DNA of 64,000 nt. Origin: Lama glama (taxonomy: Eukaryota). Both the position numbers and the translations under genes were made by a program. Within the stretch, counting starts at the first letter, position 1, and the number at the start of each line of letters is the position of its first letter. The notes under the pieces were generated by a model that was given only the letters and a program-made list of their open reading frames with translations, ran no database searches and had not been told where the DNA came from. The stretch covers positions 33,666,001-33,730,000 of the forward strand of contig CM052832.1 of NCBI GenBank assembly GCA_028534125.1. The letters run 5' to 3'. Below are positions 4,429 to 64,000 of this stretch, in pieces.

Positions 4429-4538
4429 ACATGAAGCTGCACTATGGTGATCTCACCGACAGCACCTGCCTTGTGAAGATCATCAATGAGGTGAAGCCCA
4501 CAGAGATCTACAACCTGGGGGCCCAGAGCCACGTCAAG
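4429..4538 (+). CDS. GMDS: GDP-mannose 4,6-dehydratase internal coding exon (exon 4 by human numbering), 110 nt
   Basis: A|AC completes an Asn codon across the intron, then [36 protein letters not shown]. Acceptor cctgaag|, donor |gtcagc at 4539. Frame joins exactly with the 2906-2993 exon. Confidence 0.97.
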
Positions 4539-6319
4539 GTCAGCCGCCCGCGTCGCTCTGCTTCCTCTGCTGTTCCTGGGCTGTTCTGGGGTCTGCTTCT
4601 GCCTGTGGCTTCTTGGGACAACAACACAGCCACCACACCCAGTCCTCGAGTCTCACTGTCGATGTTAGTTTGGGTATTAATGAATCCTAGTAGAAATGCC
4701 GATACATTTTTAAAAAGTGCATTCTCTGTTATTGAAAATCTTAATTGCTAACATCAAAACAGCAGTATTCATTCTGGGGGGTTGATCTTAGAGTCACGGA
4801 CCCCACCTGAATGTATTTTCTGCCGTTTCAAACCACATTGTGAATGCAGTGTTTTGTTAAAATATTAAGTCAATGAAACTTCTATTCTAATATTAATTTT
4901 TGGTAGTGATTATATTACTGGCTGAGAAAAAAAGATCTTTGAGTCCCAATATGTTAAATTTAATGGAATTAGCTTTTTATTGTAAGTAGTCGGTTATTGG
5001 AAGAAAAGCTGTTTCTAGCCTCTTGTCTCCTCAGTGTGACGCAGGGCATGTGATTCGTTGCCCTTTATCCAGATTCTCTGGTAGTCTGTCTGCCTCTCCT
5101 GCAGCTTTTCAGTAAACCTGAGAAGCCAATCCCCAGGGCTCTAGCAGTGCGCTCAGTCCGAGGGTTTGTTGCTGTACCCTTGTGCTAACGCAGTGAGTGG
5201 AATTTGAAGCCAGGGATGATATGAGTTGTGTTTGGATACTTACTCCATCAGGATAGTTAGTGGAGCTTAGAAATAAAAACAGATAACTCTAACTTAAAAC
5301 AGCTCCCACCCCCCCAAAAAAGGTCCAGAAAAATCTGTCGGCATTTTTTAGCTGTTTAATGAAGAATTCGGCAGTCTTACCTCAGAAGGGATCTGGAGTG
5401 ATCTGCTGCTCCTCCGTACCCCAGCCCCGGGCAGAGTGGAGCCTCACGCCCGTGTGTAAAGTTGCCAGCAGGTGGAATGAGCAGCCGTGGAGCGCAGGGG
5501 GCGCGGCGAAGGGCTGAGCCTGCGTACGTGGCGGCGGCCAGGTCTCCAGCCTGAGCGTGAGCCGCACGCGCACTTCGCTCCCACGCGAGCCGTGGCCGCG
5601 GCCCCCTGCAGTCGGCAGCCTGCTCTCATCTGTCTGTGCTGTCTCAGGAGCAGCTCTTCCTCTCTTAGCCTCTGAACACTGTTCTGGACCTGGACCCGGA
5701 CCCGAGCCCTGGGCTGGAGAAGGGGTCAGGGCCTCCAGGTCAGAGCGGAGCTGTTTTTGCCAGTGATTCTAATGTAATTTCCACCAAAAGGGTGTCCATG
5801 CCTCCTCTGCCCCGAGAGGTTGCCCTCCTGCCCACGGAGAAGCAGTAGCCCTCAGCCCGCTGGAGGCCGTCGGTGCCCCTTCCCCGTGACCGCCACCCCG
5901 CCGCACGCCGTGCCCCAGATAAAACGGAGTGTTTGGGAACGAGTGCTCTGTGATTCGCTTTCCTTCGGATTAGCCCGTTTCCCTTGTGGTGGACAGTGGG
6001 GTTATCACCTCTGCCAGTCGTAACTGGCGTGGGTCGAAGACGCAGGAAGGTTATAAAGGTTTGTTTATGGGGGCAAGTCCCTGTTACTCTGGTATTAGAT
6101 AAGCCAGTCTTTCCCTCTTTCCCTCTTTCCGGTTCAGAAAGTCTGACACGCTTGCCTTCCCCTAAGTGCCCTTAGTGTCTGTGCCGTGAGCACAGAAGGC
6201 ACGGGGGGCTGAGCTGATTCCCTCTGCGTTGCTCTGTGTGTGAAGTTTACCTGCTTTTCTTCCGTTTTGCTTTTTCTCCTGAAGGCCAGTTAATTGGCAG
6301 AAATGGTGCTTGTTAGTTG

Positions 6320-18513: not shown

Positions 18514-18654
18514 GGGAGGGTAGCTCGGTGTTAGAGTGCGTGCCTAGCATGCACGAGGTCCTGAATTCAACCCCCAGTGCCTCCGTTAAAAATAATAATA
18601 ATAAATAAATGAGCCTCGCTACCTCCCACCACTAAAAAAAAGAAAAAAAAATTA
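18514..18654 (+). mobile_element. tRNA-derived SINE, camelid Vic-1-like
   Basis: gggagggtagctcggtgttagagtgcgtgcctagcatgcacgaggtcctgaattcaacccccagtgcctcc carries an A box and a mutated B box. It is followed by an (AAT)n/AATAAA linker, acctcccacc and an A-rich tail. Target-site duplication aagacattaa(g/a)aag at 18501-18514 and 18655-18668. Confidence 0.88.
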
Positions 18655-18924
18655 AAGACATTAAAAAGACACATTTAAACATCACTAATGTCTGAAAATT
18701 TGTAAGTTGTTTGTCTTTTAGAAGTTTATGATAAATCTGAAAGATAACCATAGTTTAGTATGTTGAAAATTAATAGGTATGTATTTATTTAACCCAGTTT
18801 CAATTATTTAATTATTCTATGATTTAGGCCTCATTGGTCTTACGCCTGTGATCAATATACTGAAATGTAAAACATTCTCAGTACTAGCACAGGGTGTTTT
18901 TTCTTTATGAGGAGAAATAAAAGG

Positions 18925-28400: not shown

Positions 28401-30883
28401 GAAAGCAGGTGACAGCTCGGCTGAGAGGACGCGGGAGGTCCAAGGCGGGCGCAGGCCCGTGGGAGGGACTCCGTGCTGACTGGCGCCCTTGGGTTTGCAG
28501 GACGTTTTCTCGAGTCTTCTGATCAGTCTCCGCTTGTCTTCCTGCTGGCCTGTGGTACAGGCAGAGCAGGCGCCTGGTCCTGCCTTTCCACCAGCAGGCT
28601 CACTTCTAGCCGGGCGTTCGAGTCCCTTCTGGAAGCACTGACTACCCCCGACCGTGCGCCCCCTGTTCTGCTCCCGACTGCGGGCTTGTTCTCTGGCCCG
28701 GGCTCCCAGCGCCAATTAGCCTTGTAACCTTGGTAAGACACTTGTCCCTTTTCGCCTGTAGCATTTTCACCTGTAAGATTGATAGTCCTCATCACAGTGT
28801 TTTATCACTGCTTCTCATTCTGACCTCTGTAAGCACCGCTCTTTCCCCCATTCCAGTGAGTGAGCAGATGAGACAGGTAAGTGGGTGAGCACCGAGCTGG
28901 CTGTTGAGCCCAGAGCACCTCTTGCAACTCTTGCGGGGTTAGGAAAACAAAGCCCTTACTTGTGCAAACAGAACATGTCAACAGAGTGTGCACAGTGATG
29001 CCAACAAGCGTCTTGGGACTCAAAACTTGGGCAATGGAGATAATCTACCTTGATTATAGAGGCGTCACTCAATCCAGAATTTTGGCAAAAAATAAAAACT
29101 TCTTTAATGTTGATAATGTTTTAGAACAAAGAGTCAAACTGTGACAGGTCTTGGGACCATTCAGAGTTCAAGGCCCGCAGCTCGCGTCCGGAGCGGGTGC
29201 AGTGGCGCTCAGGGGCACGGGAGCGCGCATGTGGCCCGGTGCTAACGCAGGTGGTTCCGCTGGCGTAGCATTTCGCGGGTGCCTGCAGTTTCCAGGCGTT
29301 GGGGATCAGTATGGCCGTCTGTCCTCTCGTTTGAAAAGTGGAGATGAAATCGTGGGCCCGCATGCGAATTCCGTCTCTTCTGGTGGAAATTCTCCCAGGG
29401 AGATTTCTGCTAAGACTACACTTGGAGAGAATCCATGGGCCCTGGAGGCGTTCCTGCAGCAGTGTCACGCTGACCCCTCCTGTAGGTGGGTGTCCCTCGC
29501 GGCAGCTTGTCTGGTGGCGACGCCGAGTCCTTCGGCTCAAGGAGCGCCTCCTGCAGCCGGGACGAGGGACGGAGCAGCAGCGGCCACTCTTTCATCCACG
29601 AGAAAGGAGAGGTTTCTTCAGGTGGACGCATGAGGCATGTTTCTTCAGGAGGGAGTCGCAGCGTGCTCTTCCTGGCCCCTCCAATCTGTCCGACGGGGTT
29701 TCCGAGGACCCTAGACCGTTCGTCACGGCCTGTGCTTCGTGGTCTGTGCTGTGTGGGACCCGCACCCACTGTACTCGCAGGGCTGGAGAAGCCCGCGTGA
29801 GGCCGAGGTGCTCGGAGCCTCGTGGGTGACACCTGTGGTAGTGACTCTAGTATTTTAGCTCAGCATTTCATCAGGTTTTTATATGTTAATATTTTATTTG
29901 GAGCAGTATTGTGATTTTCCAAGTGATTTCTCTTATGGAAACTCCTGGATCCACGAAGGACACAGGCAGGTATTTGAGAGCTTTCTTCCTGCTCCCGACA
30001 ACAGCTGCCACCAGGGCACAGTAACGTCCTAAGGGGGGACCTGCAGCCCGAGCGCTCCCCGTCAGAGCCCTTCTCCCGTGGCCTTGGCCCTGCGCGGAGG
30101 GCCTGGGGTCACACTGCCACCCCTTCCTCGTGTGGCCCTCTGCCGGCCCACGGCCCAGAGGGAGGGAAGACACCCGATGTGCTCAGGCAGAACGCATCCC
30201 AGCCACAGCTGCCTTCACAGGGGCTGTTGTGTGGACTGACGAGCCTGGCGGTGCGGGGAGCCGTCTTCACTCACCATGGGACAGAGGCCCCGGCCCGAGG
30301 CGGCGGCTGCGGGGAGGCCCGCCCTCTGCTCCCTGGGTCCGCTGTTCTCTCGAGACTTGGGTGGAGCTGCTCCTTGGCCAGTGTGCCTTGGAAGGTCCGG
30401 GCCTCAGTGTGTGGGGTCAGGGGTCAGGGTGACGGGGACCCAGGGTGTGCGCGGTGTGATTTTCCTTTGTACAAGACTACGTGCTTCTCTGGACTGTGTC
30501 CTGGAACAAAAGTAGCGTTGCTTCCAGCAGAGGGTGAAAGCGGGGGAAAGTCAGTTGGCGTTTGCAGGTCCCGCTGCCGCCAGGCTCAGGCGGCAGGCGT
30601 CACCGCCGCCTGCAGGTAAAGGCCCAGCGCCTCAGACTCCGCGTTAGTGGGGTGTTCCTCTGGGTGTCACCTCGGAAGGAAGGAAAGCTCGTGTTGGGGG
30701 CAGTGTCTGTTTTCGCCTGGGTGGGCCGACCACACCCCGTGAGTAGGGAGACCCTGGATTTGAATACAGGTCTGTGTGACGACCAAAATGTCTAAATTTC
30801 ATGGTAGATGCTTTCCTTCTGATGAGACTGATGTGGAAAAGTCAAGTGGAAGTAGGGGCATAAGGGTGCTGGAAACAGGTGCG

Positions 30884-30981
30884 CAGGCAGGTGACTGAAG
30901 GATGATGGTCTTACTTCAGGGTGAAATCTCACCATCATCCCACCTTGAATTAAGACCATCATCGTTTCAGTCATTTGCTTG
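30884..30981 (+). ncRNA. Candidate intronic pre-miRNA-like hairpin (alternatively a palindromic MITE relic)
   Basis: Stem of about 40 bp between 30884-30923 and 30941-30981 with 5 G:U pairs, one C/U mismatch, one bulged G and a 17-nt loop. The inverted repeat is certain; its status as an RNA gene is not. Confidence 0.35.
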
Positions 30982-31889
30982 ACTTTGTGAGCAGGTAAGT
31001 TTGGTTGACTTGTGAAGCGAAAGAGCTGTAGGTGAGAAAAGAGAAATGAGATGTGAGCCACGTTACAGGTGTCTGGGGGGCCGTGTGGAGGGGAGGGAGA
31101 GCCGGGTGGGGTCCGGCAGTGGGGGGGGTGCTCCTAAAGGCTCCTAAGGCAAGAGAAGCCATCCTTGCTTTTTGTTTTTTTTTAAGGAAGAGGGACCGCT
31201 TCCAGGAACCTAAGGACCCCGTGACGCTGGCTAAGCGTTGCTGCAGAAGAGGCGGGCTTCTCCGAGGGCGCACGCGTCAGTTCAGGGTGTTTGCTGGCTT
31301 CCTTGGCTCGCCTGGAAAACTGGCGAAACCTAGCACAGGAGCAGGCTCCTAGGGTTTGCACTGACTGCAGAAGTTGGGTATGGGTTTACGTGACAGTTGC
31401 GCGCTGGTCCCTTCACTTCGGTTGTGTTAGGAAGACCCCGACGCGGGCGACGGCCCGCTCCGGTCTCCTCGGCCTGTCTGTGAGCCAGACTCTTCCTTCT
31501 GGGAAGCTGAAGGCAAGAGTTTTATTGGGATTATTTTATTACAGCTTCTTGCTGCGAAACGAAGGGTAATTGGCTAATCGAGGCTCTGGTAGCAATTTCA
31601 GAGATTGGAAAATTGGTTCCCGTCTGCCACTTGAACAAATAAGCAGCTTCTCAAATGTACAACCAACTAGTTTATTCAAAACGGTGTCTTTACAGGGAGG
31701 CCCCCTGTTCCCTGGTTTATTATGGTCTGTGTGAGTTAGAAGACTTTCCCCCCTCAGCCCCCGAAACCCAGAAATGCAGGTGCGCCTCCGTCACAGGCTT
31801 ACGCGCAGAGCGCCCATGACAACGGGGCAGAGGCTGAGGCTGCCTGGTCAAGGGGGCTTCGTCATCTGACCCGAGACTCGGCGGGAGAA

Positions 31890-53646: not shown

Positions 53647-56600
53647 GTGCTCTCGCAGCTCTGAGAGCGGATGTGTTTTTCTGTTCAAGTCAGCGTGCCC
53701 TCTGGTAGTAAGGAACACGTGACTCACGGGCGCAGGGGTGGTGTGACGAGCGTGTTCGCTCAAAGCGCCAGCGTTTCAGACAGCAGGTGGGCCAGCAGGT
53801 TGTGTTCCTGTTTCCCGGTGCACATTCTGAATAGTAGCCGCTCTCTGTTTTCAGACACACTGGTTCTGTCTCTAAACTGCCTGCTCACACGATTGCATTT
53901 GCTTCGGTAGGGTTTCGGCCCGGTGGACGGGCTCGCATGACTCGGCGCTGCGCAGGCCGGGGCTCGCCACGGCCCTCCCCTTATGAATGCATTTTCTCTC
54001 CCTCTGTGTGGAGAGATGATTGTGGTCTAGCGGTCCTCTTATTCAGGTGGCGGGGAACCATGTGGGGCTGCGCTCTCGGGGGAGCACTGCAGTGAGGTTC
54101 CCCCTCCCGCTGTGTTCGGTTAGCATCTCCAGGCAGAGGTTCTCAGTAGCTGAGATTCTGAATTGATCACGTTTTTGATCTCAGATGTCATCTTGCTAGT
54201 GGCAGCTGAGAGCAGCTCATGTCCCCGCGGGGCCGAGCCGCCCCCGGTCGGGCGGGCGCGTTTCTGCGGGGCACTTCCTTGCTGCTTGCTTCTCCCAGGC
54301 CTTTGCGTCTGGGAAGCGCCTTTGAGAAAAGCGACCTGGAGCCATGTCTCCTTGCAGGGTTTTTGCTTTTTATCTCTTGTCCCCACACAGCAGGACATGG
54401 CTCTGCCAGTCAGCCTGGTCTCGCTGTGGCGGAGGGGCCGGTGGGGCAGGACAGGACTGGTGCGCAGGGCGCCGAGCACCCAGACCTGCTGTCTTCCCCG
54501 GCCTGCTGGCCTGCTGTCCAGCTTCTGCCCTGAGAGCTCACCTATCAAAACACTTTGTCGGTGGGAGGGATGTGGCGTGACCCTACACTTAGCTCTGCCC
54601 CGACTCCCAGTCTGTCAGCAGACAGCTGCCTTGCACCCACAGGCCTGCGTCCCCACCCTGGGCTGGGGACACTTCCTGGGCTGGGGACAAACCCACATTG
54701 TGTCACTTGGGCGGGAGAGGCAGGGCCCATGACAGGCTCTGCTCCACGAGGGTCTTTGGTGAGCCAGGCCTTCCCCCCTGGATTTCAGGGCTCAAGGTTA
54801 ATGTTAGGTGTGGGGCTTACCGAGTGAGTGGGTGCACTGTAGACACAGGGTGGAGGAGGGGCCGGGGCTCACACCACCTGTGATGGGGGTGCGGTGTCCT
54901 CTCTGCCCTCGCTCTCCTCCGGCCCGTCTGCATTTACTCCTCATCTTTCTGCTTTAGGAACAATGTGCACGTTAGCAACTTTGAGACCCTAGTGATGAGA
55001 AGGCCACTCCAGGGTCTGTAAACACTGGGGAGACCCCGAGACAGGCGGGGAGTCCAGGCTCCCTCATCACAGCCTCGTTTGTAGAAAATGCTTTAAAATG
55101 TGGCTGAACAATGATGCTGTCACAGACGTGCAGTTTTCTTCTGGGCGCAAGGTGGGACCCACCCTCCCCGCCCATTTGATCTCTGACTTTCCTGAGCTGG
55201 TTTCCTTTGCTGCCCTGTGCCCCCGCCCCCCATTGTTCTGGAAGCTCAGCCAGGATGCAGCCTCTTTGTTCCTGGGGGTCCGGGATGAGCGGCCCCACCG
55301 TGCGCGGACCCGTGTGGCAGTGGGAATGTTCTGTTTGAAGTCTCCTGCTCCTGCCACATGGCAGCGCTCTGACCCACTCAGACTGGAAATCAGTCTGCTT
55401 TGCCTTCCTTTTGCACCGTTTGCAAATCTCCACTAAGATTTTCATCTCTCCCCTACTTTCCTTTCTTTTCCTTCTACAAGAAAGAGCATTCAGAAGGGGA
55501 GGGCCGTGGCGAGCCCCGGCCTGCGCAGCGCCAAGCGGACGGTCGGTGCGCCCTTTCTGTTGGGCGCTCTTCAGTGGAGACGCCTCTCACTAGGGGACAT
55601 GGACGCTCGTGACCCTGCCGAGGCTCTTCTGTCTCCTGAGTCCCCGCCGCCACCTCCTTTCTGCCCCCAGAAACGAATCCCAGTGGAGCAGAGGAGACGT
55701 AGAGGCGTGCAGGGGGTGCTTATTGTGAACCCCTCTTCTGACGGTGCGTCCTTCGGCCCAGGTGCCGCAGGAGGACCTGCACCCACACTGACGTGGGGGA
55801 CACCGCCTGCCAGGTTTCAGGACAGCAGCACCGCACAGGCTTGCTGTCCTCTCCATGAAGCAGCTCTGTCTTCGGTTCATTTCCCCTGGAACGCTCTTCA
55901 TGGAGATAACCGCGCACTCTCAGTACGTCCTCTGTTTACATCCTGACATTTACAGGAAGACAATTATCATTAATCAGCATATATGATTCTATTGTTTGAA
56001 GCTGTCTTGGCGCTTTGCCTGGAGCCCTGCTCACTCGGAATAGACAGTGGACAGACACTGCAGTGGACAACCCAGGAGTGTCTGCACAGGCACTGGGGAC
56101 GGCTGAAGCCCGGAGCCGTAGAAGTGCCAAGAGTCCCTGAGACAGACCTTCCCATGAGGACGTCCCTGGGGTTTCCAGGTGCGGCAGCAGACCAACCCGA
56201 TACTCAGCAACAAGACGCCGAAAAGCAGTGATCTTGTTTGCAGTGAGCAAACACGTTGCAGAATCAGCGAGTGAGTTGATTCCTGCGACGTGCGTTTATA
56301 GAAGACAGCGTCGTGATCTGTTTCACTGCTGTGTTTAGATCTTTATCCAGCCAGAACCTAATTTATCAACACCTTGTTATCTCAAATGCTTTCCACAGCA
56401 GGGTCATAAATCCTCCCTAAAAGGGCCTCATTTCACCCTGTAATTAAGTCTCCCTGATCCCCTTCACGGACTTGAGAAGGGAGTTAAGGGTTTGCTGATT
56501 TTCATTACGCGCACAAATGCTTGTGTTAAATCCAAGCAGGCTGGAAGGAGAACGGTGTCCTTGCCAGATTCGAGCTTCACTTAGGACAGCTCCCGTGATG

Positions 56601-63400: not shown

Positions 63401-64000
63401 CAGTGGTACCAAACAGAGGGAGACTCCGCTTGAATAAAGCATTCTTTTTACACTTAAAGATGACACAGGACCCACAGCCGAGCTTACGAAAAGCCACAAG
63501 ATGCTGTGTGTGTAAGACCTCGTCAGGCCCTCATATAGTCGATATCGCTAAGGTTCCTCTTTTGCCACGAAGTTTTTGTTTCTCTGTAACTATTCAAAGT
63601 TTTTTTTAAAACCTTTGTTCAAAGAACTGTAGACACTGAAATTCTTTTTAGTCGGAGAGCAAGAAGAAAGGTCTGTGCAGGGATGGTAAGTTGATTAGTT
63701 CTAGAACTATAGAAAGCCGGTTCGATTATGCAGATAATTTCCTGAAGTTTTTAGTTTTCGTTTATCATATATTTTTAATAAAAGAATTTGGCGTCAACTT
63801 TATGAAACCTAAATTTATGACTTCTTCTTAAGTCTGTATCGTGACACGCCACTCCGCCTTCCCTTCCAGTAACTGCAACGTGCTCTGTGGTCCTCTGGTT
63901 ACCTGCGACCTGCTTCTGGAAGCGTCTTCTCTCTTATTTGCTATTCACACATCAGTAAATTCTGCTGTTTCAGCTGACTCGCCAAATCTGCTGTCCCTGC

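Follow-up and report, generated by a model that had tools for sequence, protein, structure and literature searches.

It is not immediately clear why a large intron of GMDS should contain a nearly perfect inverted repeat of microRNA size. The sequence-only reading had proposed that this hairpin is an unannotated intronic microRNA, an ADAR substrate, or a structural switch, and had named a palindromic MITE and transcription-associated mutation as caveats. Our analysis leads to a different answer. The hairpin is probably a single-copy inverted repeat that was formed by a fold-back template switch during replication or repair, and that is now drifting, likely without a selected function.

Host Intron and Fold of the Hairpin

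The orientation of GMDS was determined from nine collinear matches to TIGR01472 (gmd), all of them on the + strand, in agreement with the sense strand that had been claimed earlier. The exon matches and exon borders place a GMDS exon of 110 nt at positions 4429–4538 (+ strand) of the window, which is the whole stretch of 64,000 nucleotides that was analysed. This exon is followed by a phase 0 intron of about 97 kb that begins at 4539 and continues past the end of the window at 64000. The hairpin is located 26 kb into this intron, on the sense strand of GMDS, and the next exon lies about 38 kb past the end of the window. Since the hairpin is intronic and on the sense strand, it would be transcribed and would fold. 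Contigs from RNA libraries cover the locus, and this coverage is not proof of transcription.

The 5' arm (30884–30923, + strand, 40 nt) is separated from the 3' arm (30941–30981, 41 nt) by a loop of 17 nt (30924–30940). The stem was found to contain 39 pairs, 34 of which are Watson–Crick and 5 of which are G:U, with no A:C pair. It is interrupted by a C:U mismatch (30914/30950) and by a bulged G at 30964. The pairing of the arms had been described with one mismatch, one bulge, and a 17-nt loop, and the computed fold is the same.

Both strands of the segment 30870–31000 were folded, as had been recommended, and were compared with 200 shuffled sequences. The minimum free energies were determined to be −61.5 kcal/mol (z = −8.19) for the + strand and −49.7 kcal/mol (z = −5.93) for the − strand. 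None of the 200 shuffles folded as well as the hairpin on either strand, and the hairpin is thus significant on both strands and stronger on the + strand. In energy per GC it is the best of all 100-nt windows in the 64 kb. Apart from AT-rich low-complexity DNA, it is also the top-ranked short inverted repeat in 694 kb, composed of 63 loci of 10 kb and the window. One such inverted repeat per ~0.7 Mb, from a sample of one, means that the genome could hold thousands.

The surrounding intronic DNA is unusually rich in CpG. The observed/expected ratio is 0.56–0.75 over about 170 kb of GMDS (the window plus loci L032–L042), compared with 0.23 as the median of 52 scattered loci. This DNA is about 1 Mb from the contig end and has strong strand skews of 0.117 (T over A) and 0.058 (G over C). 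Elsewhere in the intron, positions 18514–18660 give a weak tRNA match (29.7 bits) that is followed by an A-rich tail, and this segment is likely a tRNA-derived SINE.

Divergence between Two Species

The hairpin was compared with four contig sets from RNA libraries, out of a total of 24 runs, none of which carries a small-RNA label. Three of these sets (X3, X12, and X14, from three studies, one of them from a library presumed to be RNA) represent a second species, and the fourth (X19) carries the species label of the window. X19 differs from the window at 5 letters in 801, none of which are in the hairpin. The second-species contigs share about 94% identity with the window, and all of the hairpin differences recur in each of X3, X12, and X14. 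We infer that the second species belongs to the other camelid tribe; the split of the tribes is dated to 11–25 million years in the portion of PMC4884201 available to us.

Four substitutions are found in the stem of the second species, one in the 5' arm and three in the 3' arm. The changes A>C at 30913 and C>G at 30963 break an A:U and a G:C pair, respectively, and T>C at 30980 converts A:U to A:C, which also breaks the pair. The fourth change, A>G at 30958, converts U:A to U:G. Three of the four changes thus break a pair, and there are no two-sided compensatory changes. The loop of the second species carries A>G at 30934 and is shorter by 6 nt, the letters being left out at 30925. With the three broken positions forced to be unpaired, the fold still has an energy of −55.0, and the hairpin therefore persists in a weaker form.

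Between these two species, the hairpin stem is changing at the neutral rate of its flanks. Using X3, 4 substitutions were counted in about 80 nt of stem and 39 in the 721 nt around it (Fisher p = 1.0). At least four stem changes would be observed with a probability of 0.011 if the rate were one-fifth of neutral and 0.17 if it were half of neutral. Half the neutral rate is therefore compatible with these data, in which four changes of unassigned polarity come from a single pair of species and from contigs of RNA libraries. A conserved microRNA does not fit a stem that changes at the rate of its flanks, mostly by losing pairs and with no compensatory changes in the second species. The segment 30884–30912 has no differences, and neither do the seeds of the most probable 5p and 3p products.

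If the state of the window is ancestral, no pair has been lost in the window lineage after the two species separated. If instead the ancestor had the CpG dinucleotides that the second species carries at 30958 and 30980, the two changes in the window lineage each restored a Watson–Crick pair. With either polarity, no pair was lost at 30958/30980 in the window lineage. This is the strongest argument for constraint there, and it leaves room for constraint in that lineage only. Of the 36 differences that were classified, 9 are transitions where the second species has a CpG and 3 are transitions where the window has one. The attempt to polarise the changes by CpG decay was given up, since the observed/expected CpG ratio is 0.6 across the gene. 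The direct copies at 30931–30940 and 30955–30963 have an identical change relative to the second species at corresponding positions (30934 and 30958). This parallel change may reflect CpG decay, conversion between the copies, or re-templating.

Bias toward G:U Pairs

In all five of the G:U pairs the G is in the 5' arm, and two of the pairs are adjacent. All five are common to both species and are therefore old. The + strand bias that had been claimed is present, in that 5 of 5 transition-type differences give G:U and none give A:C, but it is statistically weak (p = 0.03–0.1). The one-sided probability is p = 0.031, or 0.06 if the adjacent pairs are counted as one event, for a hairpin that was picked for folding well on one strand. 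In the second species, 6 of the 7 transition-type pairs are G:U (p = 0.06). Transcription-associated mutation explains little of the bias. With the strand skews of the intron, the expected P(G:U) is ~0.54, and the probabilities become 0.047 for 5 of 5, 0.087 with the adjacent pairs merged, and 0.096 for 6 of 7. The G:U bias is at most a hint, and its direction is the one expected if the sense-strand RNA were under selection.

Copy Number

DNA searches with queries of 181 and 98 nt returned nothing beyond the locus itself and its reverse match, and no further match to the hairpin was found at E < 0.1 in 753 kb. A 22-nt arm pattern with up to three mismatches gave 29 matches, versus 13 for the reversed control, an enrichment of about twofold. 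None of the 28 non-self matches extended into the flanks, where 2–12 of 30 letters were identical. A two-arm pattern matched one other, unrelated locus, versus three per strand for the control. By these four genome searches, the hairpin is single copy.

These DNA, arm-pattern, and two-arm searches, none of which returned a second copy, give no support to the palindromic MITE that had been raised as a caveat. In this alternative, an old non-autonomous DNA transposon of the MER/MITE type, palindromic in structure, would have left the hairpin as its relic, and the arms would be its terminal inverted repeats. The divergence of the arms permits an age that falls within the period of mammalian DNA-transposon activity, the modest enrichment of the arm pattern is in its favor, and very old or low-copy families would be missed by such searches. 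However, a comparable pattern search did recover a genuine old repeat family (57 matches versus 0 for the control), whereas the near matches to the hairpin neither extend nor include a second copy. In addition, no target-site duplication, either TA or 8 bp, is visible at the ends of the arms, although one may have decayed. A transposon origin is unlikely. Palindromic MITE-derived hairpins are exemplified by the MADE1/hsa-mir-548 type. The hairpin shares with them the short, near-perfect inverted arms around a short spacer, and differs from them in having no dispersed copies and no visible target-site duplication.

The old family recovered by the pattern search is dispersed over loci L095–L126 and is unrelated to the hairpin by profile. 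Its translation resembles what we take to be the end of LINE-2 ORF2. A LINE-2 relic in the flanks of the hairpin was also considered and is unsupported, though not disproved. A window-derived pattern matched six other loci, versus two for the control. LINE-2-like profiles of 29 and 36 members matched eight loci at E < 0.01 in 753 kb, versus none for the reversed control. At the hairpin locus the profiles matched only over the 18-nt selection seed (−0.7 bits), with no match over the hairpin or downstream of it.

Probable Origin by Template Switching

A fold-back template switch is the origin that we prefer for the hairpin. The hairpin is a single-copy, local reverse-complement duplication with a short spacer. 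Template switching creates hairpins of this kind in one step, and cases with multiple switches exist, according to PMC10710096. The only comparison species has both arms, and a template-switch origin is what the sequence of the locus suggests.

The loop contains a third copy of a 10-nt arm segment. This copy (30931–30940, + strand) is an inverted match to 30900–30909, as had been noted earlier, and a 9-nt direct match to 30955–30963. It is beyond chance, given that 3 of up to 5000 random 17-mers matched the arms equally well. The loop reads as the complement of 30920–30924 joined, via a shared 3-nt word, to the complement of 30900–30906. A fold-back with one slip, preceding the copying of the arm, would be expected to produce this composition. 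The upper end of the 5' arm has a quasi-palindrome of 5 bp with a 4-nt loop (30920–30933, + strand), which may have served as the fold-back primer; in the second species, the 6-nt indel disrupts it.

In the proposed mechanism, the nascent strand would have folded back at the short palindrome at 30920–30933 and slipped once on a 3-nt microhomology, leaving the 10-nt copy in the loop. Re-priming would then have allowed about 40 nt of the 5' arm to be copied as the 3' arm. The two arms would have matched perfectly when they were formed and would have drifted subsequently. At present, the pre-mRNA would fold the hairpin co-transcriptionally, and the hairpin would be degraded with the intron; stray action of Drosha or ADAR on it is possible. 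The arms differ at 7 of 40 positions, which is 3.3 times the divergence of the two species (95% range 1.4–6.1), and the event would therefore be tens of millions of years older than the separation of the species.

The closest known system is the set of template-switch hairpins and microRNAs (including hsa-mir-4713, hsa-mir-576, and mmu-mir-3086) described by Monttinen, Frilander, and Löytynoja in 2023 (PMC10710096, available in part). The hairpin in GMDS resembles these in being a single-copy, microRNA-sized, sense-intronic inverted repeat that has no family, has acquired later point changes in the stem, and shows signs of more than one switch. It differs in that the published hairpins were traced against outgroups that lack the arms, and the annotated ones have read stacks, whereas here the origin is deduced and the stem changes at the rate of its flanks. 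From the same portion of that work, there are 6,054 microRNA-sized template-switch hairpins in human genic regions, of which 57 (0.9%) are annotated microRNAs. With thousands of such hairpins on record in primate genes, and roughly one in a hundred annotated as a microRNA, the significance of this one is small. The hairpin is ordinary and is probably another example of the known template-switch class. Its value is as a clean example of a locus where a persuasive shape and biased G:U pairing are not accompanied by conservation.

Evaluation as a microRNA

The proposal of an unannotated intronic microRNA was correct as to the pri-miRNA-like shape and the location in a sense-strand intron. The functional readings were not supported, and the pairing is not conserved. 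Any microRNA would have to be a young and weakly constrained camelid proto-miRNA, a candidate Drosha and Dicer product of the GMDS intron that is loaded into Argonaute in some tissue, and we consider this to be quite unlikely.

The shape is favorable. The 39 pairs are at the top of the optimal range of 33–39 reported for pri-miRNA stems in the part of PMC5340965 available to us, the loop of 17 nt is above the lower bound of at least 10 nt, and the folding z score is that given above. A sense-strand intronic position is found for 81 of the 99 intragenic template-switch microRNAs (PMC10710096, same portion). If the 5p product starts near 30900, a GUG is present at the apical junction, and the candidate seeds are those that are identical in both species. 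These features are offset by several others. CNNC is missing within 25 nt of all nine candidate cuts, and a basal UG fits only the register with an 80-nt precursor. The bulge at 30964 is 17–18 nt from the base, within the zone that is depleted of bulges (PMC5340965, in part), and the stem variant of 39 nt described there retained ~22% processing, which we count against a microRNA. Three of the interspecies differences are inside the likely duplex, and the published prior (PMC10710096, in part) is 0.9%. The CNNC, UG, and GUG motifs are optional features, and the differences at 30980 and 30986 would, as assigned by hand, create CNNC words in the second species.

The arms are absent from the 87 novel alpaca-skin microRNAs of one study (PMC3508611; supplement 3 as a whole, with files 1–3 and 5 searched). 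By eye, the "novel miRNAs" 36, 38, 59, and 80 of that set resemble the starts of tRNA-derived SINEs. Six words from the arms gave no hit in the literature, and there was no arm match in the camel supplements PMC8972041, PMC12467276, and PMC9933125, which is a weak test in part because the file of PMC12467276 lists names without sequences. As judged by titles and the starts of abstracts, the literature on microRNA hairpins in GMDS introns contained nothing on this hairpin. No Rfam family matched the hairpin at its gathering score; the best local match, a match of shape to a plant family, was 23.3 bits versus a cut-off of 73. A snoRNA was rejected, as all eight of the weak local Rfam matches, including SNORD81 and SNORD44, were far below the cut-off.

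Compared with a canonical intronic pri-miRNA, the hairpin is alike in its highly paired 39-bp stem, a loop of more than 10 nt, the apical GUG, and a sense-strand intron. It differs in lacking CNNC, a basal UG that suits a usable register, conserved pairing, and an Rfam family, and in having a bulge in the depleted zone; it is known here as a sequence. The most specific version would be a camelid-specific microRNA that arose by a multi-step template switch, with the loop as the trace of an aborted first fold-back, made from the GMDS intron, kept paired by selection in the window lineage and decaying in the sister tribe, and this we regard as a long shot. If the hairpin were processed, it would be a datable de novo microRNA outside primates and rodents; its loop would record how it was born, and its orthologue would be a natural weakened variant for comparison.

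Splicing, Editing, and Switching

A perfect CAG|GTAAGT is present at 30992–31000 on the + strand, just as the sequence-only reading had stated. The only other perfect donor 9-mer on the + strand of the 64-kb window is at 28874–28882, which is 2.1 kb farther upstream. The stem could therefore be imagined to hide an acceptor-like site and thereby keep a poison exon out of the GMDS mRNA. The acceptor-like site at 30919/30920 and the donor at 30994/30995 would define a pseudoexon of 75 nt with an in-frame stop at 30980–30982. The 5' arm does contain a pyrimidine-rich AG, the host intron is in phase 0, and the frame is kept despite the 6-nt indel. However, the site has only a short pyrimidine tract, no constraint is seen on the stem between species, and the second species has changed both the stop codon and the +6 position of the donor, which is the last letter of the 9-mer. 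No joint or loose end was found at either site in three RNA-library contig sets, although contigs drop rare forms. Two of the contig sets stop near 31030–31041, where the third continues, and one loose end is adapter-like; we attach no weight to these ends. Such a splicing element is very improbable.

The structural switch that had been claimed fails on energetic grounds: the alternative stem formed with the loop copy, when forced, has an energy of −41.1 versus −61.5 kcal/mol, which is 20 kcal/mol worse, with a pair probability of 3e-14. Only in transcripts that end at 30940–30955 is it the most favorable fold, and it is displaced once position 30960 is reached. The copy in the loop is better read as DNA history than as an RNA switch.

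A duplex of 39 bp is long enough for the binding of ADAR, and two A-to-G differences in the second species, seen in RNA-library contigs, could in principle be editing. Both of these sites are CpA/CpG pairs, one of them is in the loop, T-to-C differences (11) are as frequent in the stretch as A-to-G (8), as genomic divergence predicts, and there is no exon within 26 kb to recode. A functional ADAR substrate or a two-state RNA switch is the least credible of the readings.

The complementarity between 30838–30846 (+ strand) and 30978–30986 that had been pointed out is present over 9 nt and is unremarkable, since 24 of up to 1500 random flank pairs did as well. In the second species it is reduced to 7 of 9 by the differences at 30980 and 30986. 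This outer complement is likely due to chance.

A second inverted repeat is found within the window. Its two copies of 57 nt (53941–53997 and 55479–55535) are complementary at 53 of 57 positions. They are separated by 1481 nt, end sharply, and do not extend further. This repeat could mark an inversion or template-switch junction, or could form a long-range duplex in the pre-mRNA.
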